DNA of 64,000 bases from Candidatus Omnitrophota bacterium (GCA_021159015.1 JAGGSQ010000069.1:1332-65331), one strand, 5' to 3'; positions 12,097-45,266 are shown, numbered from the stretch's first letter. The notes: generated by a model from the sequence alone, not told the origin. Program-made: numbers and translations.

Positions 12097-12106
12097 ACCC
12101 ACCTCC

Positions 12107-25743: not shown

Positions 25744-27207
25744 TCAGAAACCAAACCAGCCCTCAACTGGAGAGGGGCCGTTTCCTATACCAATATGTTT
25801 AATGTGGCAAAATTCGAAAAACCCCGCTGGCCCCAAAACTCTGGCCCAGCCACTTTGTTTCATACCTCCAAAAGGAGTAGCAGGAGACATCTCGGCAAAA
25901 GTATTTATCCAGACTGTGCCTGCCTGAGCTTTACGGGCTAAGTTTTCTGCCTGCGCCAGATCTGCGGTCCAGATTTGAAGAGTAAGGCCAGAGGGATTCT
26001 TCTCCAAAATTTCTTCCGCCTCTTCTGCTTCAAAACTCTTAATCATCAATACAGGAGCAAAGAACTCTTCCCATACCAACTCTCTCAACTCCAGTAAAGT
26101 GGGCAAATAAAAATTAGTCCCTTCCACCCTCCTGCCTCCGCTTATAATTTTAGCCTGAGCCTCCCCTACTAGTCTCTTTACTTTCTTATCCACTTCTTCC
26201 AGATAAGAAGAACTAATCAGCGCCGCCAGATTAGCAGAAGGATCCTGGGGATCACCTAAATGTATTTTTTCTACTTTTTCCTTTAGCATTGTTTTTACCT
26301 GAGAAAAGACTTCTTCTTCTATAAGCAAAAGACTAACCCCAATACATATTTGCCCCTGTTTCATAAACGCTGCCGCCAATATATTATCAACTGCTCTTTC
26401 TAAATGAGCCGATTTGAAAATAAACCCTACATTGCACCCTCCCAGTTCACAGATAATCTTCTTAGGGTGAGAGGCACTTTCCCGATATACCTGCATAAAA
26501 GTTTTGCGGCTGCCGGTAAAAGAAAGAATATCCACCTCACTCTGAGCTAAAGCCTTTCCTATCTTTTCCCCTCTTCCGCTGACTATATTAATAAGACCGG
26601 GCGGCAAATCAAGCTTGTCCAGAAATTGAGCCAGTTTAAGAAGGGAAAGGCTGGCAAATTCCGAAGGTTTTACAATTACAGCATTCCCTGCGGCCAGTGC
26701 GGCGGCTACACTAAATCCAAAAATCATCAGAGGCACATTGTAAGGAAGAATTATGCCTGCTACGCCATAAGGCTCATAAGTAAAAATATCCCACCCCTTT
26801 TGAGAAGCAGGAGAAACCACAGAAAGTGATTCTAAAAAAGAGGCATAGTATTTAAAACAATCAGCGGCCAGAGGGACATCAACAAAGAGAGATTCTTTCA
26901 TAATTTTACCCACATCTTTACTCTCTATTTCGGCAAGAAGGGAAAGATTATCCAGAATAGTCTCTCCTATCTGTCGCAAAGTTTGTGCCCGCGCAGAAAA
27001 AGGCGTATTTCTCCAAATGGCCAGGGCTTGGCGCGATTTCTCTAAAGCAAAAGCCAGGTCGCGCGCTTCTGTCTCAAACATATACCCTAATACTTCCCTC
27101 TTCGCCGCTGCCTCACAAACAAGCCTATTGTTACTCTTCCTAAATTCCCCTCCTACATAGTAGAGATATTCCTCCATAAAACCTCCTGCTGTTTTAGCCT
27201 TCGACAT
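25744..27207 (-). CDS. NAD(P)-dependent aldehyde dehydrogenase
   Basis: ALDH catalytic Cys in QGQICIGVS. Glu in ELGGCN. GSRKTF/SGRGEKIG NAD-binding region. 487 aa. Confidence 0.85.
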   Translation of the reverse strand: MSKAKTAGGFMEEYLYYVGGEFRKSNNRLVCEAAAKREVLGYMFETEARDLAFALEKSRQALAIWRNTPFSARAQTLRQIGETILDNLSLLAEIESKDVGKIMKESLFVDVPLAADCFKYYASFLESLSVVSPASQKGWDIFTYEPYGVAGIILPYNVPLMIFGFSVAAALAAGNAVIVKPSEFASLSLLKLAQFLDKLDLPPGLINIVSGRGEKIGKALAQSEVDILSFTGSRKTFMQVYRESASHPKKIICELGGCNVGFIFKSAHLERAVDNILAAAFMKQGQICIGVSLLLIEEEVFSQVKTMLKEKVEKIHLGDPQDPSANLAALISSSYLEEVDKKVKRLVGEAQAKIISGGRRVEGTNFYLPTLLELRELVWEEFFAPVLMIKSFEAEEAEEILEKNPSGLTLQIWTADLAQAENLARKAQAGTVWINTFAEMSPATPFGGMKQSGWARVLGPAGFFEFCHIKHIGIGNGPSPVEGWFGF

Positions 27208-27304: not shown

Positions 27305-28705
27305 TTAAAAAGTATACTTCAACTCGCAGACAATCTGATTGTTATTGCGATACTGGCCGTTAGAACCATAAGCCGGACCCCAAAAGTGATGATAGCCTAA
27401 GGTAAGCCAGAGATTATCCCGCATCTCAAACTTAGTCTTAAAAGAGACCCGTCCGTCGTTGTCGTCGCCATAAATTATCAGCACTTCCGGCTTAATCCTC
27501 TCATATACAAAGTCTGTGGCTACCTTAAGGGTAACGTAGCTTTCTACTTTATCCATAAGCCCGTAAGTATAAGAACTCAGAGCGTGTTTGCCTTTAAAGG
27601 TAGGGTTGTTATGAATAAACTGGGCAAACTGCAGAGAGAAAAGCCAGTTTGTAAAGTAATATTTATCAAATCCTAATACATAGGTATATTTGTCACTTCT
27701 TTCGGTGTAACTTCTGTGCCCCTGGCTGCCATAATAAGTAGGCTCATTACGCAAGTAAGCAAATTCTCCTCTCAACGTCAACCCTTTCAGGAGGCCGGCG
27801 TTGGTAAAAGACTTGTTGAAAGAAAAACCGATGAGCTGCATTAGCTTGTGCCGGCGGGAATAATAATAATTACCCTTAGGCATACCTAAGGCGGGAATCA
27901 GACCGCCGGTAATTACTACACCATCGGAATAGGTATAAGCACTGGTAGAATAACCATAAAGCCAGTTGAGAGTGTAGTCTATGCCGGCAAATATAGAACG
28001 CCAGCGCAGACCAACTCGCGAATTTTTCAGTTTAGAAGAAGGCCGGTAAATCGCCGTACTCATACTGCCGCCGGCGGCTTCCATAATGCTTTTTACCGTA
28101 TCAAAATCATTCACTGCTTTGAAAGCAAAGGTATCGCCGGCCTTAGCCGAACGCGAAGCTTCAAAGTCAGGAATCAAGAGAAACTGTAAAGTGGAATTCA
28201 GCCAGGGCGAATACTCCACCTTAATCATCCACAAAGGGATTCTGATATCGGCAAAGTCGGGCAGCCAGTAGCGGGTCAAATCAAAAGGCATAACCCGGTC
28301 TAAAAAAGGCAGGCCGTCGGCCTGGCCCCAAACAACTTGCTGTTTGCCAATTCTCACATCCAGCTGGTCTGAAATATAATCCAGGTAGCAGTCGCGCAGC
28401 CATTCTGTTCTCTGCGTAGTGCCGGCTTTTTCCTGATTTCTGTCAAACGCCCCCTCTCTTATGCCGTAGGCAAAATCGTAAAAATAGCGCGGATGCACAA
28501 AGAGAGTCCATTCGTCTGAGATGCGGTATTGCGCTTCTAAATCAAGCGTATTGCGGAAAGATGAAAGGAACTGATGAGAGTTGTCATTGTTAGTCTGGAC
28601 CCATACTTCGGTTTTAACATAGCTGGAATATTCAAAATTATTGCCGGTTTGAGCCGCCAGAACAGATAAAGGAAATAAAAAACAGAAAAGTAATAGCTTC
28701 TTCAT
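27305..28705 (-). CDS. outer-membrane beta-barrel protein (DUF1302-like)
   Basis: Signal peptide MKKLLLFCFLFPLSVLAAQT. Aromatic-rich with alternating hydrophobic pattern. C-terminal ...CELKYTF, ending in the terminal Phe typical of OMPs. Confidence 0.6.
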   Translation of the reverse strand: MKKLLLFCFLFPLSVLAAQTGNNFEYSSYVKTEVWVQTNNDNSHQFLSSFRNTLDLEAQYRISDEWTLFVHPRYFYDFAYGIREGAFDRNQEKAGTTQRTEWLRDCYLDYISDQLDVRIGKQQVVWGQADGLPFLDRVMPFDLTRYWLPDFADIRIPLWMIKVEYSPWLNSTLQFLLIPDFEASRSAKAGDTFAFKAVNDFDTVKSIMEAAGGSMSTAIYRPSSKLKNSRVGLRWRSIFAGIDYTLNWLYGYSTSAYTYSDGVVITGGLIPALGMPKGNYYYSRRHKLMQLIGFSFNKSFTNAGLLKGLTLRGEFAYLRNEPTYYGSQGHRSYTERSDKYTYVLGFDKYYFTNWLFSLQFAQFIHNNPTFKGKHALSSYTYGLMDKVESYVTLKVATDFVYERIKPEVLIIYGDDNDGRVSFKTKFEMRDNLWLTLGYHHFWGPAYGSNGQYRNNNQIVCELKYTF

Positions 28706-28720
28706 TTTCTTACCTCCTTT

Positions 28721-29599
28721 TTACCAGCGGGAACGCATTAAGGCTTTTACGGTAAAATTATATTCACTAACCCCCTGGTCGTACTTTGTATCTTTCATCA
28801 AAATATCAGTGCGGTGGCCGGTCCGCAAATCTTTACACTCTAAAGACATCTGAGCAGGATATTTCTTATCGCCGGCTTTAGTCCAGACCCATTCCCGAAA
28901 AAGCGTCTTAAACAGCTTCCCGTTTTTATCGTAATACTCCTCAAAAATGCCGCCGCCGGTATCTTTATCTATCCACACCTTTCTTTTGGCATAATACCAG
29001 TGCGGCCTTTGGGGATAGCATTCTATAATAAAACACGGCTTGCCGGCGAGTTTAGTTTCTCCTGTTGCTTCAAACTTGTAGCCTTTAAAATTTTCTTCCC
29101 CAACTAATTTATAACTTTCATCTTCAAAACGGCGGGTAGACACCTCTTCTACGGTCATATCCGAGCCCAGAAAAGCATCGTCATTCTGAGAAGCAGAAAT
29201 CTTTCTTACCTTCTTAAGGGAAGGCAGCCAGAGCCAGACATCCTGCTCTCTTTTGGCATCTTCATAAGTCCAAGTTAGAACCGCTAATCCTTTAAGCGCT
29301 GTAGGGTAAGTAAAAGCTACGATATCTTTGTAAGAAATTCCCTCCTGACCTCCTTTTATCATCCGCATTCTTTTCCATATTCGTTTGCGCGTAAATCCAC
29401 TGCGGTCTACATATAAAACCTCCCCTATCTGCATATAATCACGGGCGAAAAAGGAATATTTGTTGTAGTAGGCAATGCGCATAATCTCATCGGCACTCAT
29501 TCCCTCCTGCGGTCGGTAAACTTTATAGTATTCCAGATTGGCCGCAAAAACTAAACTGCCAGCAAACAGCATTCCCCACAAAAGTCCTAGTTTTTTCAC
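28721..29599 (-). CDS. LolA-like outer-membrane lipoprotein-sorting / lipid-carrier protein (DUF1329-like)
   Basis: WLWLPSLKKVRKISASQNDDAFLGSDMTVEEV is characteristic of the LolA-like proteins encoded next to MMPL exporters. The likely start is the GTG (VKKLGLLWGMLFAGSLVFAANL signal peptide) at 29599, overlapping the MMPL stop. The ORF track extends the start to 29704. Confidence 0.6.
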   Translation of the reverse strand: MKKLGLLWGMLFAGSLVFAANLEYYKVYRPQEGMSADEIMRIAYYNKYSFFARDYMQIGEVLYVDRSGFTRKRIWKRMRMIKGGQEGISYKDIVAFTYPTALKGLAVLTWTYEDAKREQDVWLWLPSLKKVRKISASQNDDAFLGSDMTVEEVSTRRFEDESYKLVGEENFKGYKFEATGETKLAGKPCFIIECYPQRPHWYYAKRKVWIDKDTGGGIFEEYYDKNGKLFKTLFREWVWTKAGDKKYPAQMSLECKDLRTGHRTDILMKDTKYDQGVSEYNFTVKALMRSRW

Positions 29600-32046
29600 A
29601 CTCCACCTCCTGTTTTGAAAAAACTTACTTTTCTTCCCCGTCTCTCTACCCCCTTTTTTAATCTTCTCTTTACTCTTCCCCACAAAAAGGCCGGCTTTAG
29701 CCACCAGACCAGCAACGGAACCATTACTAAGGAGATAACCATATTAAGCACCAAGGACAGGCACAAAATTATCCCCAGCTTTGCCTGAAAGAGAATAGGA
29801 GAAAAAACCCATACCAGTATCCCCAGAGAAACTACTGCCCCACTGAAAAATACCGCTTTGCCGCTGGTAATCAAAGTATAATGGAGTATATCCTTATAAG
29901 TATGACGTTTCTGGCGCATCTCATCATACAAACGAGCCAGAATATAAATGCCGTAATTAATCCCCAGCCCTTCGCTTAAAGAGACCAGGGGAAGAATCTC
30001 GGTGGTAATAGAAATCCCCAGAAATCCCAAAAGAGAAAAAATAACTAAGTTGCTAAGAACAAGAGGCAGAAGCAGAAACCAGCCGGCAGTAAAAGAGCGG
30101 TAAATAAAGCTGACATAAAAGAAAATTAAAAGAGAGATAAAGAGAGCATTGGGAAGAATAGTTTTTTTAATGATATCGTTTATGGCATAGAAAATGCCAA
30201 TGTCTCCCCCCGCATAGAGAAATTTTATATCCTTGAATTTATGCTTTTGAAAGTACTGATGCGTTTTCTCCACCGCTAAATTTACCGTAGTTGATTTATG
30301 GTCGCGGAAATCAAATTTAATATTGCAGGATTTCTCGTCGCGGCTGATTAGATGGTCATAATCAGAGGGAAATCCCGAAAGCGTATAAAGAAACCAGTAT
30401 TGGGCAATAACATCGTCTTGGGAAGGAATTTTAAAATATTCTCTCTTGCCAGCAAACATAAACATATTTAAAGCTTTGACTGCATCTACCACGGACAAAG
30501 ACGATCCGACTTGTAGCACCTGCTGCTGGAGATACCTCTGAAAACTATCGATAGCCCTTAATTTATCAGCTTTAAGCAAAGAAGAGGAGGATTTTGCTAG
30601 AATATAGTAGGAATTTGTTCCTCCGAAATTGTCGTTAATAAATTTCTCGGCCCGGTTATAAGGGCTGTGGGGATAAAGATAACTTGAGCCTTCTGTATTG
30701 TCGCCAATAACTATTTTTTTTATCCCTCCCAGAGAAAGCAGGCCGGCAATAATGAAACCCGTAATTAAAATTGTGCCGGCTCTCTTATTCAAAGAGAAAA
30801 TACTTATCTTCGCCAGCATCCTATCTACCCACAGATGCCGTTCTTCTCTTTCCACGGCCAATATTTTAGGCCGGTGCAAAAATGACAAAACACAAGGCGT
30901 AAACATAAAGGAAGTGAAGAAGTTGGCGAAAATGCCCAGCCCGCTGGCCAGAGCCATACTTTTTATGGTAGAAAGAGGCACCATTACCAAAGATAAAAAC
31001 CCGAACCCGTCTGTAAATACACAGGCGAGCCCCGGCAGAAACAAATAGGCCATGGTATTTACTATAGCGTGCTTGCTTTTCATTTTAGGGCTGCGCATTT
31101 CCTCATAATAACGCTTAAGTGTGTGCACAGAATGGCTGATACCTAAAGAAAGAACAATAAAGGGCACCAAGATTGTAGCCGGGTCAAGCCGCAGGCCTAG
31201 AAGTTTCATTGTTCCCATACCCCAGATAGTAGCCATAGAAGAATCTAAAAGAGGCAGGAGTATGCCGCGGCGGGAACGAAAGGTAAAAAACAGAATAAGG
31301 GAAATCACCAGCATACTTACTGCCAATACCTTAAACATAGAAGGAAGGTAAAAATTAAGCCAGCCTTCTAAAATAGGACGGCCGGCAATATAAATCTCGG
31401 TGTTTTTGTCTTCATATTTTTTCTTCAACTTCTGCAAAGTAGAGAATATATAGCTGGTTTTTACTCCCGAATTAAAATCTACCTGGATAAAAGTGGACCG
31501 GAAATCACGCGAGACCATTTTGCCGTAAACATTGGGGTTAATCTCAATTTTTCTTTTCAATTCCTCCCTGCCTCTTTCGTCCTGAGGCGGATAACGCAAA
31601 AGGCGTTCTACAAAAAAACCCTCTTCGTCAGCTACAATATGTTTTATATGGCGGCTGGCTAAAGAATAAACGCGGCTGATATTTACACCCTTAACCAAAT
31701 ACAAATCTTCCGTTAAAGATATCAGCTTATCCAAAAACTTAGCATTAAGAATTGTCCCTTCCTTAACCCGCAGGGCCAAAGATACCTGGTTAAGGCCGCC
31801 GAAGATATGCGTAAGCTGGTGCTGCACTTCTACAAAGGGATGTTTCTGAGGCAGGAAATCTTCCAGGTGTGTTTCTACCTTTATCGTACCTAACACACTA
31901 AGAAAAAATACTGTTAACGCTGTGCAAGCTATAATGATATATATCCGCAGATGCACTATCCTGCGTGCCAGTCTATACTGCCAGCTACTGGTTAGACCTC
32001 TGCTTTCGCCTGAAGCATACTTTATTCTACCGGTGCCTGCTCCCAT
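29596..32046 (-). CDS. MMPL/RND-superfamily exporter (HpnN-like putative lipid exporter)
   Basis: 816 aa with two blocks of ~6 TM helices separated by large periplasmic domains, as in MMPL/SSD-type RND pumps. The start overlaps the upstream aldolase gene by 25 nt. Confidence 0.75.
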   Translation of the reverse strand: MGAGTGRIKYASGESRGLTSSWQYRLARRIVHLRIYIIIACTALTVFFLSVLGTIKVETHLEDFLPQKHPFVEVQHQLTHIFGGLNQVSLALRVKEGTILNAKFLDKLISLTEDLYLVKGVNISRVYSLASRHIKHIVADEEGFFVERLLRYPPQDERGREELKRKIEINPNVYGKMVSRDFRSTFIQVDFNSGVKTSYIFSTLQKLKKKYEDKNTEIYIAGRPILEGWLNFYLPSMFKVLAVSMLVISLILFFTFRSRRGILLPLLDSSMATIWGMGTMKLLGLRLDPATILVPFIVLSLGISHSVHTLKRYYEEMRSPKMKSKHAIVNTMAYLFLPGLACVFTDGFGFLSLVMVPLSTIKSMALASGLGIFANFFTSFMFTPCVLSFLHRPKILAVEREERHLWVDRMLAKISIFSLNKRAGTILITGFIIAGLLSLGGIKKIVIGDNTEGSSYLYPHSPYNRAEKFINDNFGGTNSYYILAKSSSSLLKADKLRAIDSFQRYLQQQVLQVGSSLSVVDAVKALNMFMFAGKREYFKIPSQDDVIAQYWFLYTLSGFPSDYDHLISRDEKSCNIKFDFRDHKSTTVNLAVEKTHQYFQKHKFKDIKFLYAGGDIGIFYAINDIIKKTILPNALFISLLIFFYVSFIYRSFTAGWFLLLPLVLSNLVIFSLLGFLGISITTEILPLVSLSEGLGINYGIYILARLYDEMRQKRHTYKDILHYTLITSGKAVFFSGAVVSLGILVWVFSPILFQAKLGIILCLSLVLNMVISLVMVPLLVWWLKPAFLWGRVKRRLKKGVERRGRKVSFFKTGGGV

Positions 32047-33008
32047 AATTTGAAAGTCCTTACTAATACCGGATACCAGCGGCTCATCTTAGTAAAATCA
32101 CCTTTAGTCTTTACCTTGCCTTGCGTAGAGGCGACAAAAGCATCCAGCTTGCGGTTGAAAACTTTTTTTAATATATCCGCGCGGCCAATGATTAAGAAAT
32201 CCACCCCTTCTGCTTCCTCGCTTACCTTAACTATGCGCCCAGCCTGGTAATGAAAGCAAACTGCCCTGCCGCTATCCTGGTCTTTAACCGCCAGCCGGCA
32301 GGTCAAATCATATTTCCTTCCCAGCTCCTGGGCCTGAGGGTCATTGTTAACCAATTCCGCCAGTTTAGCTATATGCGCGGGTGAAAGCAGTTTGTACTTC
32401 TTTAACGATCCCGGCTCCTGAGGCAGCTCTCTATCCGCGGCCAAAGCGGTGCGGGACTGAGATTTCAGAATCAGGTTTATTTTTGCCTGCTCCTCTAAAA
32501 GTTCAATGAGGCTGAACGCTTCTTTGAAATCCTGGCCTATGCTTACCACCCCGTGCTGTCCTAAAACTACTATATTGGAATCAGCCAGCGCCTCTAAAAC
32601 CGGTGCAATATGGGTAACCGTAGGAGTCTCCTGAGGAACAACTTTTATTTCTCCCAAATAAAATTTCGCCTCAAAAGAAAATATGTCCAGCCTGCCAAAA
32701 TAATGAAAAAAGGCTACTGTATAAGGAGAATGCGAATGCAGGACGACTTTGACGTGAGGGAATTTACTATGTATGCCTAAATGCAAACCCTTCTCGCTGG
32801 TAGCTTCTCCTTTTCCCTCCAAAACATTGCCCTTGCTGTCAACCATAAGAATATCTTCATAAGAAAGCTCTCCCAAATAACAGTCGTGAGAAGTTATAAG
32901 AATACCTTCGTCTACTTTTAAAGAAATATTGCCGCTTCTGGCGCTAACTAAACCCCGTTCATTCAGGCGGCGGGCCCAATAGATTATTTGTTCTTTTTGC
33001 TTATCCAT
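32022..33008 (-). CDS. class II aldolase/adducin-fold protein fused to a C-terminal SCP2-like sterol/lipid-carrier domain (Ald2/DrdA-like)
   Basis: N-terminal half has RRLNERGLVSARSGNISLK and the HSHSPY metal-binding histidines of class II aldolases. C-terminal ~110 aa (DFLIIGRADILKKVFNRKLDAFVASTQGKVKTKGDFTKM) resembles SCP2. I placed the start at MDKQKEQ (ATG 33008). Confidence 0.65.
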   Translation of the reverse strand: MDKQKEQIIYWARRLNERGLVSARSGNISLKVDEGILITSHDCYLGELSYEDILMVDSKGNVLEGKGEATSEKGLHLGIHSKFPHVKVVLHSHSPYTVAFFHYFGRLDIFSFEAKFYLGEIKVVPQETPTVTHIAPVLEALADSNIVVLGQHGVVSIGQDFKEAFSLIELLEEQAKINLILKSQSRTALAADRELPQEPGSLKKYKLLSPAHIAKLAELVNNDPQAQELGRKYDLTCRLAVKDQDSGRAVCFHYQAGRIVKVSEEAEGVDFLIIGRADILKKVFNRKLDAFVASTQGKVKTKGDFTKMSRWYPVLVRTFKLWEQAPVE

Positions 33009-33486
33009 CTCCTTCCTCCTTAATGAGATCAAGCCGAGGCTTCTCGACCTCCCCCAGAAGACTTTCTGCATACATAGGACGTCCGGCTAAAGTAGAAGCA
33101 TCACTATCAGAAAATTTATCTAAATCCAGCTCTGTCCCTGCTGCAAATTTCACATCCACATTGTGATATTTAGCTAATTCATATACATACAAAGAACTAC
33201 TTAAACACAAATATCCATCGTCCATCTTCTTCTGATAAAGAATCAGAAGCTCCTTTATTTTTTGCTGGTAAAAAAGATGCCCCAGCATATTATCAGTACA
33301 ATATAAAAATTCTAAACCAGCAGCAGATAAAGCATCTCTATTCCATCCCAGTCCCAATAAATACGGCCGCAACTCAGGATTTACCAATACGAACCCCCTA
33401 TGAAATTTCTCTTTCAAATAAATAACGGCCTCTTCAGACAAAATTCCCCAAAACAAAACAGCTTTTTTTATATTCGTTATTTCCAT
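33001..33486 (-). CDS. truncated eIF2B/MtnA-like paralog (C-terminal Rossmann-like half only; catalytic motifs absent)
   Basis: ALSAAGLEFLYCTDNMLGHLF...IKELLILYQKKMDDGYLCLSSSLYVYELAKYHNVDVKFAAGTELD parallels the GADR...NKIGTY...VPFYVAA region of MtnA, but lacks the GADR Asp and the upstream CN(T)G Cys. 161 aa. Confidence 0.5.
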   Translation of the reverse strand: MEITNIKKAVLFWGILSEEAVIYLKEKFHRGFVLVNPELRPYLLGLGWNRDALSAAGLEFLYCTDNMLGHLFYQQKIKELLILYQKKMDDGYLCLSSSLYVYELAKYHNVDVKFAAGTELDLDKFSDSDASTLAGRPMYAESLLGEVEKPRLDLIKEEGDG

Positions 33487-34430
33487 TTCCTCTTATCGTT
33501 CAGGCGCAGCTCCTCCAGCCCTACCCAGCCGCTAATCAGTTCTTGGGGCACAATGTCAAAACTGGGATATATAGCCTCTATATTCTCTTTATCAGGTATA
33601 TTCTCTAAAAACATAAAAACTTCCTGCGGGGGACGCTCTTCAATTCCAACCTTTTCTATAGAAAAATCATAAGGATATTGTACAAAAGCATAGACAGGAA
33701 TGTTGTAGATGCCAGCCAGACAGCTTAAAGCATAAGTTCCAACTTTATTAATAATATCTCCCTGTAAATTCGCCCTGTCCGCGCCACAAACTACAGCGTT
33801 AACTTTTTTCTCAGCCATAACTTTAGCAACCTGGTTGTCACAGATAAGAATAGTATTTACCCCTGCTCGCTGCAACTCCCACGTAGTAAGACGTGCTCCT
33901 TGCAGATAAGGACGTGTCTCGCTAACATAAAACCTGTATTCTTTACCTAAATTCCTCAAAGCCTCAGCCAGATAAATTAGCTCCCCGTTAATATTACATA
34001 TGGTAAGAATAGAACTTTGCTGTGGCAAGACCTCAGCTAAGGCGGCGCAGCGCCTGCGGCGGGCTTTGTCAAAACCGTCCAAAAATGTGGCGATTATTTC
34101 AGATAATGGCTTATCTTCTCTCAAAGACTTTTTAAGAAGAGAGGAAAGAGAAAAAAAATCAAAGGTAGGACGCGTGGCTTTGAATTTCTTGGCCACCAAG
34201 TCCGCCAGAGTACTTTTATCCTGGTACTCCTCCTCTAGCAGCTGGCAAGTATAGAAATATAAAAGCACCTGGCCGAAGGCCCGTGTCTTCATCTCGCGCA
34301 GGCAAAACAGGGCATCTTCTAAATTAAGCACCTCCAGATACTTCTCTTCCCAGGGCAGAAGTGTCTCATCCAGAACCAGAATTTTTTTGCCCTGCATCCT
34401 GACTGGAAACGAAAGAGGTGAATTAAACAT
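33477..34430 (-). CDS. mtnA: S-methyl-5-thioribose-1-phosphate / 5-deoxyribose-1-phosphate isomerase (eIF2B-family, MtnA/DrdI-like)
   Basis: LVLDETLLPWEE at the N-terminus. TICNINGELIYLAEA with the catalytic Cys. SETRPYLQGARLTTWEL. CGADRANLQGDIINKVGTY with the catalytic Asp. Confidence 0.75.
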   Translation of the reverse strand: MFNSPLSFPVRMQGKKILVLDETLLPWEEKYLEVLNLEDALFCLREMKTRAFGQVLLYFYTCQLLEEEYQDKSTLADLVAKKFKATRPTFDFFSLSSLLKKSLREDKPLSEIIATFLDGFDKARRRRCAALAEVLPQQSSILTICNINGELIYLAEALRNLGKEYRFYVSETRPYLQGARLTTWELQRAGVNTILICDNQVAKVMAEKKVNAVVCGADRANLQGDIINKVGTYALSCLAGIYNIPVYAFVQYPYDFSIEKVGIEERPPQEVFMFLENIPDKENIEAIYPSFDIVPQELISGWVGLEELRLNDKRKWK

Positions 34431-35163
34431 CTGAATCTAAAACAAATTCGAATACTCCCTTAATCATTTTCTCCTGAGCCTCGAACAGCTTAAAATCAGA
34501 AAAACCTAATTCTCCGGTTATTAGATTATCGGAAGCCAGAAGCACCGCACAACTCTTTTTGCCGTAAAGGTTAGCCAGGGTAACAAAGGGACTGGTCACC
34601 ATATCCACAGCAATGGCCCCTTTGGCGATGTAAGAGTTGACTATTTCTTTTGCCTCCCGGAACAAAGCGTCTGTTGTCCATATGCCGCCTCTATGCACTT
34701 TGCCTTTTTTCTCCATAACTTTACACAGCTTATCTGACAAGTCTTTATCTACCGCAGGCGAGAAATCATCCTTGACATAATAACGCGTAGCACCATCTCC
34801 CCGCAGGATTTTATCGGCAATAATAAAATTTCCTATCTCAATATCTTCTCGCAATGCCCCGCAGGAGCCCAGCCGCACCAATATGTCTATGCCGGCATTA
34901 CAGAGAAGCTCGGTAACAAAGGCGGAGTCGGGAGAATAAAAGCCGCCGTTGCCTACGGTAATCTTTCTGCCCTTATAGAACCCTGTCCAGAAAGTATAGC
35001 CTAAGAAGGTAAAATTCTTCGTCGGCCTCTCCAGCATATCCAGGCACAATTTAGCTCTCTGCGGCTGGCCGGAGACAAGAGCAATCTTGCCAAAATCGCC
35101 TTCTTTGAACTGTAAGTGCTCCAGCAAATCTTTCGGTTTTAAGTGGACATCCCGCTGCATCAT
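34423..35163 (-). CDS. DeoD-type purine/5'-deoxynucleoside phosphorylase (PNP/UDP family I)
   Basis: GQPQRAKLCLDML...TGFYKGRKITVGNGGFY...VRLGSCGAL aligns to E. coli DeoD (GDPLRAKYIAE...TGTYKGRKISVMGHGMG...RVGSCGA). 246 aa. Confidence 0.75.
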   Translation of the reverse strand: MMQRDVHLKPKDLLEHLQFKEGDFGKIALVSGQPQRAKLCLDMLERPTKNFTFLGYTFWTGFYKGRKITVGNGGFYSPDSAFVTELLCNAGIDILVRLGSCGALREDIEIGNFIIADKILRGDGATRYYVKDDFSPAVDKDLSDKLCKVMEKKGKVHRGGIWTTDALFREAKEIVNSYIAKGAIAVDMVTSPFVTLANLYGKKSCAVLLASDNLITGELGFSDFKLFEAQEKMIKGVFEFVLDSDV

Positions 35164-35213: not shown

Positions 35214-36686
35214 TTAGACGTAAAGTTCGTCGGTTTGAGATGCTTTCTCAAAACGTGACATATTCTCCATATAAGAACGGAAGCAAAGCCCTACTAAAGG
35301 ATGATAAATCCTATTGTGCAGTATCCTTTCTACGCGTCCGGGCTTAGAATAGAATTCCCGCAAGGCCCAGGCTCCCAGCCTCCCAATAGCTTCCTGGGAC
35401 AAATGTTCAGTAGGAACCACAGGATGGTGAAAGTCCCAGGTTTTTAAATCGTCGAATTTGACCCAGCCTCTTTCTACATATTTAGGCCATATAGGAGAGC
35501 CAGGCATAGGCGTAAGATACTGTAGGGCGCAGATATCCGGGTCTATTCTGTCTACCGCTTCAAAACGCTTCTTTATTCTATATTCATCATCATTCTCAAA
35601 GCCCATCATCCAGGTAAGGACAGTAGCAATCCCTGCTTCTTTCAATTTAGCTACTGTCTCCTCTACCTGTTCTACGGTAATACCTTTGCCTAACTCCTCT
35701 AACTCTTCGTCCGTGGCTACCTCAATTCCCGCCAAAGCTAAAAAACAGCCTGCCTCTTTCATTTTAGGAAATAAATCTACATCCCGCAGGTAATAAGGAG
35801 CACGGCCTAAAAAGCACCAGGAAACCTTTTTGCTCAGACCCCGCTTAATCATATCCTCAATAAACTCTTCCATGCGCTGACGGGAGACATTGAAGCAGTC
35901 GTCCATCATGGTAACTACTTTTACCCCGAACTTATCGTGAAGAAGCTCCAGCTCGTCCGCTACGAGTTTGCCAGAACGAGCCCGAAAAAATCTTAAATCA
36001 GCGTTTCCCCGCGAGTCAAACTGCGACCACTCATAGCAAAAATTGCAACCGGCCGGACATCCCCGCGAGTTCCAGGTTTCTGTATAATGCTTCCAATAAT
36101 CATGCCCTACATATTTCTCCATAGGAAACAAATCATAAGCGGGCATAGGCAGTTCGTCCAGATTCTTTATTAACCCACGGTAGGAGGTAAGCACTATCTC
36201 TTCTCCCTCACGGAAAGCAAGACCTTTCACCTCTTTTACCTCTCTGCCGGACGCTATTGCTTCCACCAGCTCCACAAAGCTTATGTCCTGCTCTCCTACC
36301 AGACAATAATCAATCCAGGGGTTCCTCCTGAGAATCTGGCGCGGTGCAGAAGCATAAACCAAGCCGCCAGCAATAATAGTAATTTCGGGATACTTCTCTT
36401 TAACCAGCTTGGCTGCCTGATTATAACGGTAAACCACTGCCGCCCCTCCGGTAGTATGCAGAATATCTCCTATATGAATGATGTCCGGACGGGCTTTACC
36501 AATCTCCTCCAGCATCTGCTCGTTGCTCATTTCCCAGGCGCGACAGTCCAGAACCTGCAAAGCATATTCGGGATGCTTCTGGCGCAGAAGCGCGGCTATT
36601 TGCGCCTGCCCTATATTGGGCGCACGGTGTTTCCCCCAGGTTGACCAGGCACCTAAATTGGGCTGAAGAAACATTACTTTCATCAT
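35214..36686 (-). CDS. B12-binding-domain radical SAM protein (class B rSAM)
   Basis: N-terminal cobalamin-binding Rossmann-like domain, then the CPAGCNFCYEW CxxxCxxC rSAM cluster motif. 490 aa. Confidence 0.8.
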   Translation of the reverse strand: MMKVMFLQPNLGAWSTWGKHRAPNIGQAQIAALLRQKHPEYALQVLDCRAWEMSNEQMLEEIGKARPDIIHIGDILHTTGGAAVVYRYNQAAKLVKEKYPEITIIAGGLVYASAPRQILRRNPWIDYCLVGEQDISFVELVEAIASGREVKEVKGLAFREGEEIVLTSYRGLIKNLDELPMPAYDLFPMEKYVGHDYWKHYTETWNSRGCPAGCNFCYEWSQFDSRGNADLRFFRARSGKLVADELELLHDKFGVKVVTMMDDCFNVSRQRMEEFIEDMIKRGLSKKVSWCFLGRAPYYLRDVDLFPKMKEAGCFLALAGIEVATDEELEELGKGITVEQVEETVAKLKEAGIATVLTWMMGFENDDEYRIKKRFEAVDRIDPDICALQYLTPMPGSPIWPKYVERGWVKFDDLKTWDFHHPVVPTEHLSQEAIGRLGAWALREFYSKPGRVERILHNRIYHPLVGLCFRSYMENMSRFEKASQTDELYV

Positions 36687-36697
36687 AAACTCCTTTT

Positions 36698-38254
36698 TCA
36701 GTTTTTTATTCGGTTTTCTGCCATATGCTTCAATCTGCCTTCAGCAATCTTGCCGCTGCGCGTCTTGGGAAGCTCTTTCACAAACTCAAAGTAATGGGGG
36801 ATTTTAAAATGCGCCAGCTTCTTCTTCAAAAATTCTCTTAATTCTTCCTCTTTGACTTCTGTATCTTCTTTACTTACTATAAATACTTTGGGCACTTCTC
36901 CCCGCAAGCGGTCAGAAACACCCACAGCGGCACACTCCTGCACCGCCGGATGCTCGGACAAAGCTTTCTCTATCTCCCACAAAAAAACTATCTCTCCTCC
37001 TACTTTCAGCATCTGCTTCTTCCTTCCGGCAATGTAATAAAATCCTTTCTCATCTCTGTAGGCTAAATCGCCGGTGCGAAAAAAACCCTCTGGCGTAAAA
37101 GAGGCTTCATTTAAAGAGGGATTTTTATAATAGCCTTTGAATACGGCTTTGCCTCTGATTAACAACTCACCTACCTCGCCTTCTTTCACCTCCTCTCCTT
37201 CCTCATTAACAAGTTTTACTTCTACATCGGGCGAAGACACGCCGATACTCTCGATATTAGCAGAATCGGGCGGCGTAACAATGTTAGGAGGAGAAGTTTC
37301 GGTCATCCCCCAACCGTTGAGAAGTTTTGCCTGTGGACAAAGTTTGTGGAATTTCTTAAGCAAGCGCGGCGAAGAGGGAGCGCCAAAAACGACTACATAC
37401 CTCAAGGTTTTTAGATTAAATCCCTCCAAATCTTTAAGGGTAAACAGCGCTACATACATAGAAGGCACTATCCAGAAAAAGGTAATCTTAAATTGCTCAA
37501 TATTCTTAAGGAACTGGCGGGGAGCAAATCTTTCCATTAACACAACCTGCAGACCAAAATATACCATTAACAGAAAATACACCCATCCCCCTGCATGAGA
37601 AAGAGGAATAGCACAAAGAACATTATCGTTCTCATTGATATCGGAAAGGAAATACTTTACTTGCCGCGGCGAATACTCAAGATTGTCGTAAGTAATAACT
37701 ACGGCTTTAGGCTGGCCGGTGGTTCCGGAAGTATAAGAAATTATAGCCTCCTCACCCCGAGCATTGTCTATAAAGGCTCCTGCCTTTTCCTCTGCCCCGT
37801 TCTTTATCAGCTGAGAAAAACTCAAAAAATCACCCTCCCGAGTTTCTTGTGTTTCATCAACTAACACTATCTTCACCCCTGTATCTCTCTCCAGCCTGTC
37901 ATAATTTATATTGATACGCCTCCTGGCAATAAGGATATCTACCTGGGCGTGTTTCAAAATGCTTATTAATTCCTCCTCGCTCAACATAAAATCAAGCGGC
38001 ACAGCACAAAAGTGCAAAGAGAATATAGCCGTGTAGGCTACTATATACTCCCAGCTATTGGGAAGAAATATACCTATGCGTGCCGGTTGGCAAGGAGTTA
38101 ATTCCCAAAGGCCTGCCGCACACTTAAGGCCTAATTGGTGCAGCTGGCCAAAGGTTATTTTTTTCTCTCCTGAAATAAGAGCCACCTTATCAGGGAATAA
38201 TTTACTCTTATTTTTTAGAAGAAGAGTAAAATTAAAGATTTTTCTCTCTTCCAT
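36698..38254 (-). CDS. AMP-dependent acyl-CoA synthetase/ligase (adenylate-forming enzyme)
   Basis: YTSGTTGQPKAVV (AMP-binding P-loop), GWGMTETS, FRTGDLAY and PKTRSGKI motifs. 518 aa. Confidence 0.85.
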   Translation of the reverse strand: MEERKIFNFTLLLKNKSKLFPDKVALISGEKKITFGQLHQLGLKCAAGLWELTPCQPARIGIFLPNSWEYIVAYTAIFSLHFCAVPLDFMLSEEELISILKHAQVDILIARRRININYDRLERDTGVKIVLVDETQETREGDFLSFSQLIKNGAEEKAGAFIDNARGEEAIISYTSGTTGQPKAVVITYDNLEYSPRQVKYFLSDINENDNVLCAIPLSHAGGWVYFLLMVYFGLQVVLMERFAPRQFLKNIEQFKITFFWIVPSMYVALFTLKDLEGFNLKTLRYVVVFGAPSSPRLLKKFHKLCPQAKLLNGWGMTETSPPNIVTPPDSANIESIGVSSPDVEVKLVNEEGEEVKEGEVGELLIRGKAVFKGYYKNPSLNEASFTPEGFFRTGDLAYRDEKGFYYIAGRKKQMLKVGGEIVFLWEIEKALSEHPAVQECAAVGVSDRLRGEVPKVFIVSKEDTEVKEEELREFLKKKLAHFKIPHYFEFVKELPKTRSGKIAEGRLKHMAENRIKN

Positions 38255-38332: not shown

Positions 38333-38551
38333 TTATTTACGCGCTATATCTTGAATATTTAAGGCAATATTAATAAGGATAGAGGTTACACCCAAAATAA
38401 ATACACTTTTAGGAGTGACACTGGTTAAACCTAAATTGTAGTTGATACTCCATAATTTCAAAATAACGCTGGTAACAATAAGGATAAAACCCACGCTTAA
38501 GAAAAAATCTTCGAAAACGCGGTAATAATTTTTAAAACTCCCGCTTTCCAC
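38333..38551 (-). CDS. small 2-TM membrane protein (72 aa), paralog 1
   Basis: GTG start preceded by GGAGGCGAGG. Shares FEDFFLxxGFxLIxxSVxxxL...LGxTxVTxK..F......L.N..LNIQ with the adjacent ORF. Confidence 0.55.
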   Translation of the reverse strand: MESGSFKNYYRVFEDFFLSVGFILIVTSVILKLWSINYNLGLTSVTPKSVFILGVTSILINIALNIQDIARK

Positions 38552-38573
38552 AGCCTCGCCTCCTTTTTCATAT

Positions 38574-38786
38574 TTATACTTTATAAAAGGCCTTCACTAA
38601 ATTCTGGATATTGAGGGACAAATTAAAAAGTAAACAGGTGATAGCTGCCGCAAATATATCTTTAGCCGTAACGGTTGTAAAACCTAAATCATATTCCACA
38701 CCCAATAGCCGCATAGCTACGCTGGCAATTACTAATACAAAACCTGCTCCTAAAAAGAAATCTTCGAATAATTTATATTCTTTCAT
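38574..38786 (-). CDS. small 2-TM membrane protein (71 aa), paralog 2
   Basis: I placed the start at MKEYKLFEDFF (ATG 38786), preceded by GGGGGAGG. The ORF-track extension would overlap the divergent nfeD gene. ~45% identical to paralog 1. Confidence 0.55.
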   Translation of the reverse strand: MKEYKLFEDFFLGAGFVLVIASVAMRLLGVEYDLGFTTVTAKDIFAAAITCLLFNLSLNIQNLVKAFYKV

Positions 38787-38796
38787 CCTCCCCCTT

Positions 38797-38826
38797 TTTA
38801 CTAAAACAGCTTTTTTAGAATATAAT
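38797..38826 (+). promoter_or_regulatory. putative promoter of the nfeD-stomatin operon (TTTACT-18-TATAAT)
   Basis: Consensus -10 TATAAT at 38821-38826. Weak -35 TTTACT 18 nt upstream. About 57 nt upstream of the ATG at 38884. Confidence 0.35.
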
Positions 38827-38883
38827 AAAACCCTTAACCTGTCAACTGAAATTTTAAAGGGAAGCAATTTGACAGCTAAAAAA

Positions 38884-40209
38884 ATGGCAGCTATAATGAG
38901 AACGATGAAAAATTGGTACATAAAGCTTGGGGTAGGAGTTTTCTTTCTTCTTAGCCCCTCCTTTCTATTTGCCTCAACTCTTAATGTCTTAACTATAAAG
39001 GGGCTAATAATAAATCCGGTAATACAGGAATACATAGAAGAAGGTATAAGAAAAACCGAACAAATCCAGGGCTATCTCTTAATTCGCATTGATACGCCGG
39101 GCGGACTGCTGAAGCCTACAGAAAATATTGTAAAAATGCTCCTTAATGCCAGAGTGCCCGTAATATGTTATGTTTGGCCGCAAGGAGCCAGAGCTGCTTC
39201 GGCGGGTAGCTTTATTGCTTACGCCGGTAATATCCTGGCTATGGCCCCTAATACCCACATTGGAGCAGCTCATCCTGTAATAGGAGGAGGGCGCTGGGAA
39301 GAGATAGGAAAGACTTTGCAAGAGAAAATTACTAACGATACCTTAGCTTTGGCCCGTAATATCGCTCACGCGCGCTCGCGCCCTTACTCCTTTATTAAAA
39401 AGACGATAAAAGAAAGCCTTTCTTTTACAGCAGAAGAAGCTAAAGCCCAGAAAGCGGTAGATTTTATTGCCTCTAATCTGAAGGAATTACTAAGAGATAT
39501 CAATAACTTTCATATAGTATTAGAAGGAGACAGAACTATCGTATTGCATACTAAAGATATAGATATAAACTATATAACCTTTAGCCCGCGGCAAAAATTT
39601 TTAAATGCTATAACTGACCCTAACATTGCCTATTTATTATTTAGCTTAGGATTTTTAGCACTACTATTTGAAATAACCCATCCCGGTTTCGGCCTGGCGG
39701 GAGTAAGCGGGATTATCGCCTTACTGCTTGCTTTCTATGCCTTTCAGATTTTACCTACTAATTATACAGGTTTGGCGTTAGTAGGAGTAGGTATAATTTT
39801 TCTCATCGCGGAAGCTTTTACACCCACGTTTGGGCTACTTACAGGAGCAGGATTAATCTGTTTTATCCTGGGATCAGTTATGCTTTTTCCCCATTCTAAG
39901 ATTATACATCTATCACTAAAAACCATTATTCCTTTAGCCGTTTTAGCCTTTATCTGGACTAATTTTATCCTGGTAAAACTAATTCAGACAAGAAAACAAA
40001 GACCTCTCAACGGGAAAGAAGCTCTGGTAGGAAAAATTGGCACCGCCAAGACAAATATTTTGCGCCACGGCAAAGTGAATGTAGAAGGTGAAACCTGGAA
40101 TGCTAAAAGCAGTCGTTTAATTAAAGCTGGTGCGGAAGTAGTGATTAAAAAAGTGGAAGGGCTTAGGTTAATAGTAGAACCACTTATGGTAACAAAAAAG
40201 GAGGAGTGA
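38884..40209 (+). CDS. NfeD-family membrane-bound ClpP-class serine protease (long form, with C-terminal OB-fold)
   Basis: [47 protein letters not shown] is ClpP/NfeD-like. Followed by multiple TMs and a C-terminal beta domain. I placed the start at [11 protein letters not shown] (38884; alternatives 38899/38905). The ORF-track start at 38611 overlaps the divergent gene. Confidence 0.8.
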
Positions 40210-44396: not shown

Positions 44397-45266
44397 TTAG
44401 GTTAAATATGAGGCAGCCTGATAAGAGCTTCTTACCCAGGGAGAGCTTTTTACGGCTTTAAATCCCATTGTTTCCGCTATCTCTCTCCATTTATCAAATT
44501 CTTGGGGGTGGACATATTGCTGCACGGGAACATGACGGAAGGAAGGTGCCAAATATTGTCCCAGGCTCAGGAAATCACATCCTACCCCTCGTAAATCCTC
44601 CAAAACTTTGATAACTTCCTCTTTTGTTTCTCCTAACCCTAACATAAGCCCTGACTTAGTGCAGAGATGAGGATTTATTTTTTTTAAATAGGCAAGTACT
44701 TCTAAAGAACGCCGGTAGACAGCTTCGGGACGCAACCTTTTATAAAGCGAAGGGACCGTTTCTATATTGTGCCCGATAACTTCTGCCCCGCTTAAAGCAA
44801 CTTTTTCTAGCGCCTGGCGGTTAAACAAAAAATCAGGTATTAAGAGCTCTACTTTTATGGTTTTGTCTATCTGTTTTATCAAACTTACACAACGAGAGAA
44901 TATTTCTGCACCTCCATCCGCTAAGTCATCACGGCTGACGCTGGTAAGCACTACATAATGCAGTCCGAGTTCGGCCACACACTTCTTTATTCTCTCCGGC
45001 TCTTCCGGATCCAGCCGGCCGGGTTTACCTTTCCCCACATTACAAAAACGGCAGTGGCGGGTACAGACATCACCCAAAAGCAGAAAAGTAACTTCTCCTG
45101 CTCTGAAACACTCGCCTATGTTAGGACACCTTGCTTCCTCACATACGCTATGCAAATTCCAACGGCGCAACGTCTGCTTCATATAGCGCAACAGGTCTAG
45201 ATTTACCGGTTTCCGCAGCCAATCTGGTTTAAGGTAATTTAGTCTCGCGACAGTAATTCCATTCAT
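44397..45266 (-). CDS. lipA: lipoyl synthase
   Basis: CEEARCPNIGEC (auxiliary cluster) and CTRHCRFC (rSAM cluster). C-terminal VRSSYQA. Confidence 0.9.
   Translation of the reverse strand: MNGITVARLNYLKPDWLRKPVNLDLLRYMKQTLRRWNLHSVCEEARCPNIGECFRAGEVTFLLLGDVCTRHCRFCNVGKGKPGRLDPEEPERIKKCVAELGLHYVVLTSVSRDDLADGGAEIFSRCVSLIKQIDKTIKVELLIPDFLFNRQALEKVALSGAEVIGHNIETVPSLYKRLRPEAVYRRSLEVLAYLKKINPHLCTKSGLMLGLGETKEEVIKVLEDLRGVGCDFLSLGQYLAPSFRHVPVQQYVHPQEFDKWREIAETMGFKAVKSSPWVRSSYQAASYLT

Follow-up and report, generated by a model that had tools for sequence, protein, structure and literature searches.

This article is concerned with three neighbouring envelope genes in a 64,000-nt stretch of DNA from a Candidatus Omnitrophota bacterium (GCA_021159015.1 JAGGSQ010000069.1:1332-65331), which was examined as a whole and is hereafter called the window. 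Together they encode an inner-membrane transporter from the superfamily known as RND (resistance-nodulation-division), a LolA-like carrier for the periplasm, and a DUF1302-type beta-barrel for the outer membrane. An earlier note on this DNA had read the triad as a tripartite exporter. Its three-part composition stands, and outward transport is something we infer from precedent and context. On balance, we cautiously favour the view that the three proteins form one envelope-spanning exporter of a hydrophobic or amphiphilic small molecule, probably fatty-acyl derived, and that they represent a compact, AmeABCD-like variant without the BNR protein.

The triad belongs to a series of ten overlapping or closely spaced genes that runs on the minus strand from 38254 down to 25744 (Table 1). 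The RND and carrier genes share 4 nt (GTGA), a gap of 15 nt separates carrier and barrel, and the 3' end of the aldolase gene overlaps the start of the RND gene by 25 nt. The aldehyde dehydrogenase (ALDH) gene follows the barrel gene in the window, whereas it sits between aldolase and pump in most relatives. Chance can be excluded for the three open reading frames (ORFs) of the triad, since they are long, match their families strongly, and have hundreds of conserved homologues.

Table 1. Genes of the operon, in order of transcription
Product	Position	Strand	Matches and remarks
Acyl-CoA ligase (AMP-binding)	36698..38254	-	First operon gene; Pfam AMP-binding and AMP-binding_C
B12-binding radical S-adenosylmethionine (SAM) enzyme, BchE/HpnJ-like, no equivalog	35214..36686	-	Pfam B12-binding and Radical_SAM
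Nucleoside phosphorylase (PNP_UDP_1), candidate 5'-deoxyadenosine/methylthioadenosine (MTA) phosphorylase	34423..35163	-	Pfam PF01048
MtnA/DrdI-like (5-deoxy/methylthio)ribose-1-phosphate isomerase	33477..34430	-	Pfam IF-2B (PF01008)
Small IF-2B-family protein, 161 aa	33001..33486	-	Orthologues carry PF01008 matches
Class II aldolase (DrdA-like) with C-terminal SCP2 domain	32022..33008	-	Pfam Aldolase_II (PF00596) and SCP2
Inner-membrane RND transporter, MMPL/HAE3 type, 816 aa	29596..32046	-	Pfam MMPL twice; sterol-sensing/Patched signatures
Soluble periplasmic LolA-like carrier, TP_0789-like, 292 aa	28721..29599	-	PF17131; GTG start
Outer-membrane beta-barrel, DUF1302 family, 466 aa	27305..28705	-	PF06980; signal peptide; KYTF end
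NAD(P)-dependent ALDH, 477-aa gene call	25744..27177	-	Pfam Aldedh, E 3.5e-112

The three components

The pump matches MMPL (PF03176) in two stretches (E 4.5e-30), together with the sterol-sensing domain PF12349 and the Patched sterol-sensing signature. Its hydropathy profile shows a first transmembrane segment (TM1), a periplasmic loop of ~175 aa, TM2-6, TM7, a second loop of ~180 aa, and TM8-12. The best NCBIfam model is HAE3 (TIGR00921), with 190 bits over residues 34-780 and a curated cut-off of 351.9. The resemblance to the HpnN and MmpL lipid exporters that the earlier note had claimed holds as a remote one: MmpL3 and HpnN (E 1e-4 to 3e-8) and MmpL4 are weak matches among the structures of the PDB, but family scores and motifs rule out membership in either group.

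Three assignments of the pump were rejected. Against the HpnN model (TIGR03480) it reaches 52 bits, with a cut-off of 752, and neither a squalene-hopene cyclase nor Hpn genes occur among the scanned ORFs of the window. Against the actinobacterial model (MMPL/actII, TIGR00833) it reaches 127 bits, with a cut-off of 875, and the Asp-Tyr pairs of TM4 and TM10 are not conserved. As for HAE1 drug efflux of the AcrB-AcrA-TolC kind, Pfam finds no match to PF00873 (ACR_tran, AcrB/HAE1) in the pump, which is paired with a LolA-like protein and a DUF1302 barrel, and that barrel is porin-like, not TolC-like. With HAE3 as its best family, the pump stands apart from the HAE1 drug pumps, as the note had supposed.

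The Asp-Tyr pairs in TM4 and TM10 of MmpL3 are what we take to be its proton relay. At the corresponding position of TM4 (residues ~300-313, about 31105-31146), every Omnitrophota pump has Ser-His. In TM10 (residues ~693-706, about 29926-29967), about half of the Omnitrophota pumps, the window's included, have Asn-Tyr (GINYG in the window clade), and the rest keep the Asp (GDDFG in another clade).

The carrier is best matched by PF17131 (LolA_like/TP_0789-like; E 3.4e-41, 141 bits), which outscores its sister family PF07044 (DUF1329; E 4e-16, 59.7 bits, cut-off 23.1). Its relatives of solved structure in the PDB are 9tp6 (E 1.6e-26), 4z48, and 3bk5. The longest reading of the gene, 28721-29704, would yield 327 aa and overlap the RND gene by 109 nt, but it extends too far at the 5' end. 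Translation starts at the GTG at 29599, giving 292 aa, and public gene calls use this codon as well. In all of ~50 orthologues a Met stands at this position, and after it come a stretch rich in K/R, a hydrophobic one, and a signal peptide of the A-x-A type. A lipobox Cys is absent from the signal peptides of these orthologues, and a signal peptide of the signal peptidase I type without such a Cys makes the carrier a soluble periplasmic protein. With the start thus corrected, the LolA-like periplasmic protein of the earlier note is confirmed.

The barrel protein matches PF06980 (DUF1302) over profile positions 74-541 of 541 (E 3.2e-23, 83 bits, cut-off 23.2). It begins with the signal peptide MKKLLLFCFLFPLSVLA/AQ and ends in a KYTF beta-signal. 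The AlphaFold2 model, based on 116 homologues, has a mean predicted local distance difference test score (pLDDT) of 91.2 and a predicted template-modelling score (pTM) of 0.86, and is almost all beta-strand, with about 20 long strands. As modelled, the product of 27305-28705 is a transmembrane outer-membrane beta-barrel and not a soluble protein, which agrees with the 466-aa barrel ending in YTF that had been proposed. A Foldseek comparison of the model with the PDB returned outer-membrane porins only. As these are generic 16-strand porins at a template-modelling score of about 0.45, no function can be transferred from them, and the PDB holds no solved structure related to the barrel by sequence. 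Residues 118-160 (about 28226-28354) are the best-conserved part of the protein and mostly non-strand, with the pattern R-x-G-K-Q-Q-V-x-W-G-Q-x-D-G...L-D-R-V-x-P...D...D-x-R-I-P-L-W-M, and the segment is common to the Prevotella and Acinetobacter baumannii homologues discussed below. It is a candidate for a plug or a docking site of the carrier.

Conservation across Omnitrophota

Genes on metagenome contigs encode a barrel identical to that of the window. Among its 748 homologues, the best 120 are 42-98% identical, and all of those with a named source come from Candidatus Omnitrophota. A profile of the Omnitrophota barrels, run against a library of 1.8 billion proteins, found 4170 clusters (50% identity level) at E <= 0.001 and 312 at E <= 1e-30, with long N-terminal extensions on some of the matches.

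Scanning one genome per GTDB species gave 53 loci, nearly all from Omnitrophota and some with other taxon labels. Neighbours were counted in the 38 loci whose sequence extends for 3.5 kb or more upstream of the pump, the window proteins being compared against all ORFs of each locus. The order pump, carrier, barrel is constant in the Omnitrophota loci: the carrier lies beside the pump in 38/38 and the barrel in 37/38, the missing one being cut by a contig end, and the barrels range in identity from 80% down to 35%. By these counts, the triad is a core gene set across Omnitrophota. A gene for a BNR/Ycf48-like protein was found neither in the tables of the 38 loci nor in the Pfam scan of the window, which took in ORFs of 180 aa or more (37 further ORFs among them), a copy elsewhere in the genome being possible.

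A DUF169 gene (PF02596) lies shortly downstream of the barrel in 10 distinct loci (L007/L074 (CP070807.1), L009, L023, L034, L044, L048, L050, L057, and L059) and is absent from the window operon.

The same cassette in other phyla

When plasmid and chromid records with annotation (PLSDB) were searched in translation, the cassette was recovered elsewhere; a Photobacterium record in PLSDB lacks annotation. Prevotella nigrescens has, in this order, TetR, two ABC genes, MMPL, an 'outer membrane lipoprotein-sorting protein', and DUF1302. Haliovirga abyssi shows a permuted order (radical SAM, KASIII-like, DMT, DUF1302, MMPL, LolA-like), and Ilyobacter has a LolA-like protein, a 416-aa hypothetical protein, and an RND protein. 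Pump and carrier occur as a pair only in Sulfitobacter, directly after a type I polyketide synthase (PKS), and in Pseudoalteromonas, on a mobile element. The window pump aligns to its Haliovirga counterpart at E 1e-82 and to that of Prevotella at E 2e-24, the carrier finds the Prevotella protein by tblastn at E 9e-25, and the Prevotella DUF1302 protein is related to the Omnitrophota barrels by hhalign (99.4%). Judged by such matches, the triad belongs to a compact three-part form found in RefSeq genomes of several phyla, for which the literature search returned no description as a system.

In A. baumannii (NZ_CP077849.1; L064, 4063-8984), a fusion gene is followed by a barrel gene. The locus is unannotated in its record and was annotated by hand; its domain content, together with ORFs of 424, 621, and about 254 aa, identifies it as the A1S_0112-0119 operon. 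In order, it encodes a nonribosomal peptide synthetase (NRPS) condensation domain, an adenylation-thiolation-thioesterase (A-T-TE) protein, a 1216-aa fusion, and a 424-aa protein. The fusion, A1S_0116, joins a START/polyketide-cyclase domain, an MMPL pump, and a PF17131 domain in one chain, which shows pump and carrier to be physical partners. The last pump helix is separated from the LolA-like domain by an additional hydrophobic segment, which would put that domain in the periplasm. The window pump is 27% identical to A1S_0116 over 793 aa (E 4e-97) and thus far closer to it than to MmpL3 or HpnN. In A1S_0116, TM10 keeps the Asp (GADYA) and TM4 has the same unusual His. The 424-aa protein, A1S_0117, has no Pfam match at E <= 1e-4, yet hhalign relates it to the Omnitrophota barrels (99.0%, E 7e-18), with which it has a GxQxVVWGxADG motif and a terminal Y-x-F in common. 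It is a DUF1302-type barrel, a possible improvement to the annotation of this pathogen operon.

The A1S_0112-0119 operon makes acinetin 505, a C15-hydroxyacyl lipopeptide detected in the culture supernatant; an A1S_0116 mutant loses surface motility, just as the biosynthetic mutants do, and A1S_0117 has been described only as 'related to porins' (PMC5376624, PMC7997844). The position of the compact cassette in a lipopeptide operon supports the export of an acylated amphiphile. The window system resembles A1S_0116/A1S_0117 in its related RND protein with a His in TM4, its PF17131 module, and its homologous barrel, as well as in the acyl-activating enzyme that heads the operon and the cytosolic lipid-binding domain associated with the pump. 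It differs in that START, RND, and LolA-like parts are fused in A. baumannii, whose operon moreover includes an NRPS, an acyl carrier protein (ACP), and a phosphopantetheinyl transferase and has a known product (Ac-505).

A proposed shuttle across the envelope

We envisage that the RND protein would extract its cargo from the inner membrane and transfer it to the LolA-like protein, the soluble carrier of the periplasm. The carrier would then dock on the DUF1302 barrel, which would insert the cargo into the outer membrane or pass it through. A shuttle is proposed because there is neither a TolC-like duct nor a membrane-fusion adaptor. What the analysis establishes is which proteins these are, the compartments they belong to, their joint inheritance, and their homology to the A. 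baumannii cassette; the sequence of transfers, the energy supply, the direction, and the cargo are deduced from these. Several features point to a lipid cargo, namely the sterol-sensing signature of the pump, the LolA fold of the carrier, the fatty-acid-type ligase, and a cytosolic lipid-binding domain immediately upstream (SCP2 in the window, START by fusion in A. baumannii).

To our knowledge, all characterised bacterial RND proteins (HAE1, MmpL, HpnN, SecDF) move their substrates outwards. HpnN and MmpL3, which carry hopanoid and trehalose monomycolate, respectively, from the inner membrane outward, share with the window pump the MMPL-type architecture and small periplasmic domains. On the other hand, the similarity is remote, the Asp-Tyr pairs are not conserved, and the partners are different. 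For HpnN, transfer of lipid to periplasmic shuttles has been proposed (PMC12324291).

Closer at hand are the clusters that combine DUF1302, DUF1329, and RND genes. The earlier note had mentioned such clusters in proteobacteria as having no assigned substrate, and the literature agrees (PMC6394551, 10.1101/072470). AmeABCD of Castellaniella defragrans is a tetrapartite HAE3 system whose deletion lowers monoterpene tolerance and raises the accumulation of Nile Red (Puentes-Cala and Harder, PMC6394551). In Shewanella, Kangiella, and Pseudomonas, Price et al. observed that DUF1302, DUF1329, BNR (COG4447), and COG1033 RND genes show cofitness, and export of a cell-wall component was proposed for the cluster (10.1101/072470). 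For one DUF1302-DUF1329 pair, a 2026 study reports an AlphaFold-Multimer interface score (ipTM) of 0.84 and notes no solved structure (PMC13499233).

Like these clusters, the window triad encodes an outer-membrane DUF1302 protein, a periplasmic protein of the LolA superfamily, and an RND pump together, although the window pump matches HAE3 best only below the cut-off; as with AmeABCD, there is no TolC or membrane-fusion protein and the cargo would be hydrophobic. Unlike AmeABCD, the Omnitrophota cassette has no BNR/Ycf48-like fourth protein (AmeC) in the window or the 38 loci, its carrier is of the short PF17131 form (292 aa versus about 450 aa for DUF1329), its barrel is shorter (466 versus about 600 aa), and it sits in a core-genome region and not in a catabolic island. 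The BNR component having been searched for and not found, the triad cannot be assigned to the tetrapartite family itself.

A further parallel, drawn from published descriptions only, is provided by the aryl-polyene clusters, in which an RND pump of the ApeM/ApeL/ApeN set works with LolA-like and LolB-like partners and placement of a polyketide lipid in the outer membrane has been proposed (10.1101/2020.12.19.423268). The pairing of an RND-superfamily pump with a LolA-like partner is the same, but the Ape pump belongs to the APPE family and its outer-membrane partner is a LolB-like lipoprotein (DUF3261) and not a barrel. In Treponema, TP_0789 has given PF17131 its name and TP0790 has been called an RND pump, the adjacency of the two being read from their locus tags only.

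Neighbouring enzymes and the nature of the cargo

The acyl-CoA ligase is the most constant neighbour, with a copy in 26/38 loci and a position directly upstream of the pump in 19; in one locus (L008), the two genes overlap by 4 nt. Next in frequency come the aldolase-SCP2 protein (20/38) and ALDH (16/38, the nearest upstream neighbour of the pump in 12). The MtnA-like isomerase and the small IF-2B-like protein are each found in 13/38, always together (13/13) and with the small gene after that of the isomerase. The B12-dependent radical SAM enzyme occurs in 11/38, the phosphorylase in 9/38, and a DeoC gene with a zinc-dependent alcohol dehydrogenase (Zn-ADH) also in 9/38. Ligase and aldolase-SCP2 are thus steadier partners of the triad than the radical SAM enzyme.

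The earlier note had tied the triad to a radical SAM/acyl-CoA-ligase module and taken that module as a hint of the cargo. For the ligase, the tie holds and the hint survives; for the radical SAM enzyme, both weaken, since it accompanies the triad in only part of the phylum and the genes between are best explained by salvage (see below). The radical SAM enzyme was therefore downgraded as a cargo-defining gene, the more so because elsewhere its partners are an MFS transporter and a type-II-PKS-like set. Upstream of the pump lies a mixed group of genes, in which a fatty-acid-type ligase is constant and the sub-clade of the window adds a B12-dependent radical SAM enzyme with its own disposal route for 5'-deoxyadenosine.

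By NCBIfam, the ligase is closest to long-chain-fatty-acid--CoA ligase (PRK06187, 390 bits, below cut-off), the radical SAM enzyme scores 218 bits for BchE and 142 bits for HpnJ, both far under their cut-offs, and the isomerase scores 165 bits for salvage_mtnA, again below cut-off. For the phosphorylase, the DeoD type is best, with weak matches to HpnG, MTAN, and futalosine hydrolase. A link to hopanoids through the HpnG- and HpnJ-like matches was rejected, as these are weak and far below cut-off and the window ORFs that were scanned include no hopanoid genes. The window copy of the small 161-aa protein has no Pfam match and may be a degenerate second isomerase subunit.

The aldolase carries Aldolase_II (E 3e-36) and SCP2 (27 bits, cut-off 21.3) domains. 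Its best relative in the PDB is 6btd, the 5-deoxyribulose-1-phosphate aldolase DrdA (E 1e-17), and the alignment brings out the motifs of the catalytic Glu and the three metal-binding His (SE..H, HSHSP, and QHG). The ~330-aa protein has 178 homologues, most with both domains, and all of those with a named source are from Omnitrophota.

In the DrdK/DrdI/DrdA route, or 'DHAP shunt', 5'-deoxyadenosine and 5-deoxyribose are disposed of as dihydroxyacetone phosphate (DHAP) and acetaldehyde (PMC6079011). The phosphorylase, isomerase, and aldolase of the window are best read as salvage of the radical SAM by-product 5'-deoxyadenosine and not as lipid tailoring, an economical reading because the module sits beside a B12-dependent radical SAM enzyme, whose by-product is toxic. 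ALDH can oxidise the acetaldehyde from such a route. Compared with the DHAP shunt, the window module has the C-terminal SCP2 domain on its aldolase and the extra small IF-2B-like protein, and its operon also encodes a lipid-type transporter. Two observations fit plain salvage poorly. First, a lipid-binding SCP2 domain sits on an enzyme that is expected to release acetaldehyde. Second, the aldolase-SCP2 gene persists by the transporter in distant clades (L041, L047, L062) with DeoC, Zn-ADH, ALDH, and ligase, where the recovered stretch holds no radical SAM enzyme or phosphorylase.

A second set of contexts was seeded from the aldolase instead of the barrel. In L072, the order is PadR, ligase, phosphorylase, isomerase, radical SAM, small IF-2B, aldolase-SCP2, pump, carrier, barrel. 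In L074, it is radical SAM, amidohydrolase, aminotransferase IV, isomerase, small IF-2B, aldolase-SCP2, ALDH, DeoC, ADH, pump, carrier, barrel, DUF169. Three further loci (L070, L071, and L073; 1-7000 each), from the Omnitrophota genomes CP070797.1 and CP070684.1 and contig SRR12133403_4578, have no triad. Here a block of B12-dependent radical SAM enzyme, amidohydrolase, aminotransferase IV, isomerase, aldolase, and ALDH directly follows a type-II-PKS-like set with two ketosynthases, an ACP, a PF04199 cyclase, an SRPBCC polyketide cyclase, an MFS transporter, and a ketoreductase. The enzyme block thus pairs with different transporters and with polyketide-type genes, which fits a biosynthetic role of the whole operon without proving it. 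Genes of the polyketide type are unexpected in such small genomes.

Export, import, or neither

Export is favoured by the RND precedent, by the A. baumannii context and phenotype, and by the dye data on Ame. Some points weigh against it. The evidence on Ame and A1S_0116 consists of phenotypes of whole-operon or single-gene mutants, which give no direct account of direction or substrate (PMC6394551, PMC5376624, PMC7997844). Proton coupling is not evident from the sequence of the window pump, given its Ser-His and Asn-Tyr in place of the Asp-Tyr pairs, and HAE3, though its best RND family, scores below the curated cut-off. The scanned window ORFs include no acyltransferase, PKS, or NRPS gene, and the Omnitrophota neighbours (aldolases, Zn-ADH, ALDH, ligase) look catabolic rather than biosynthetic.

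The same enzymes can be arranged as a scavenging route, in which the barrel would admit a hydrophobic nutrient, the carrier would ferry it to the sterol-sensing RND protein for insertion into the inner membrane, and the ligase would trap it as acyl-CoA. The nutrient could be a fatty acid, a fatty alcohol or aldehyde, an ester, or a host or prey lipid, with ADH and ALDH feeding alcohols and aldehydes into the route. There is precedent for both ends of it: NPC2 hands cholesterol to NPC1, a member of the same superfamily as RND, and the FadL/FadD system traps fatty acid as acyl-CoA. In favour of import are the place of the ligase as the steadiest neighbour, its translational coupling to the pump gene in L008, the classical alcohol-to-acyl-CoA route made up by Zn-ADH, ALDH, and ligase, and the lack of the relay Asp in the clade of the window.

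Proteobacterial clusters of this kind are also tied to catabolism. Pseudomonas putida depends on such genes to grow on Tween 20 and butyl stearate (Thompson et al., 10.1101/2020.07.04.188060); monoterpenes (PMC6394551) and phenanthrene, p-cresol, and steroids (10.1101/072470) are further settings; an anaerobic benzene degrader expresses a related cluster at a high level (PMC13101534); and in Thalassolituus, C28 alkane induces an MMPL-LolA fusion 42-fold (PMC6304351). Omnitrophota, finally, have been proposed to be host-dependent nanobacteria in an overview that does not mention lipids, RND pumps, or the triad cluster (PMC10066038). Nevertheless, import would run against the outward transport of every characterised bacterial RND protein named above, the Nile Red data on Ame point to efflux (PMC6394551), and the A. 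baumannii, Sulfitobacter, and Haliovirga cassettes sit in biosynthetic clusters. We therefore regard import as the main rival reading, possible but rather unlikely.

The phenotype of AmeABCD (PMC6394551) also suits a general efflux pump for solvents and xenobiotics, serving detoxification as has been proposed for Ame, without any functional tie to its neighbours, the neighbourhood being mere synteny in small genomes. The Prevotella cassette, which lies behind genes for a TetR regulator and two ABC exporters, would agree with this, as would the varying sets of neighbours between Omnitrophota clades. Yet ligase, aldolase-SCP2, and ALDH stay by the triad through several rearrangements and down to a barrel identity of about 40%, and the reading-frame overlaps with the aldolase (window) or the ligase (L008) argue for co-expression. 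A pump of this general kind strikes us as improbable.

The poor fit of the SCP2 domain with plain salvage bears on two other readings, and we give the pair of them only a slim chance. In one, the enzymes would process a 5'-deoxyadenosyl lipid adduct by the logic of HpnH/HpnG or futalosine: removal of adenine, isomerisation, and aldol cleavage would yield DHAP and a lipid aldehyde two carbons longer, which ALDH and ligase would turn into an acyl-CoA, and the triad would move the resulting lipid. In the other, the triad would be the main route of bulk lipid in host-dependent nanobacteria, exchanging it with the outer membrane or with hosts. Both stay open because the SCP2 domain sits on a DrdA-like aldolase that is kept by the transporter where radical SAM enzyme and phosphorylase are lacking.

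Lol-like lipoprotein sorting, suggested by the LolA-superfamily fold of the carrier and by the name 'outer membrane lipoprotein-sorting protein' that PGAP gives to its RefSeq homologues, was rejected as highly improbable, since the carrier matches PF17131 and PF07044 (DUF1329) only and not the LolA family, it is paired with an RND pump in place of a LolCDE ABC transporter (there are no ABC genes in the operon), and homologous cassettes lie in biosynthetic or catabolic clusters for small molecules.

Significance

Systems of DUF1302, LolA-like, and HAE3-type RND proteins are common, in hydrocarbon degraders and pathogens alike. What is new here is that a minimal three-gene form without BNR is a core feature of a whole uncultured phylum. 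New as well is the probable recognition of A1S_0116 and A1S_0117 as an export pair of the same form, which would offer a genetically tractable model with a known product. Finally, the steady partners in Omnitrophota are the CoA ligase and the aldolase-SCP2 protein and not the radical SAM enzyme, which narrows the search for the cargo. The phylum-wide form, the A. baumannii model, and the aldolase-SCP2 protein together make the question of cargo and direction more testable. Should the system move bulk or scavenged lipid, it would have a bearing on the making of the outer membrane in ultra-small, host-dependent bacteria.

The rest of the window

The remainder of the window is taken up by housekeeping genes (Rnf, glycine cleavage, LipA/LipB, PurH, FtsH, and others). 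Three blocks of core metabolism, at 4837-9622, 44397-50298, and 11194-12177, all on the minus strand, comprise the Rnf operon, the P and T proteins of glycine cleavage with lipoyl synthase and lipoate ligase, and a CsgG/FlgT-like lipoprotein. The GC content is even, at about 0.37-0.46, and no feature singles out the transporter operon as an acquired island. An Rfam scan of the window found three tRNAs only, and scans for promoters and terminators were uninformative, their counts being equal to the shuffled expectation. Just upstream of the operon, at 38336-39035 on the minus strand, lie two small membrane-protein ORFs in tandem (a 72-aa gene call and a 153-aa ORF). Their C-terminal sequences are clearly similar (…FEDFFL..GF.L…N.L.LNIQ…), which suggests a tandem duplication.

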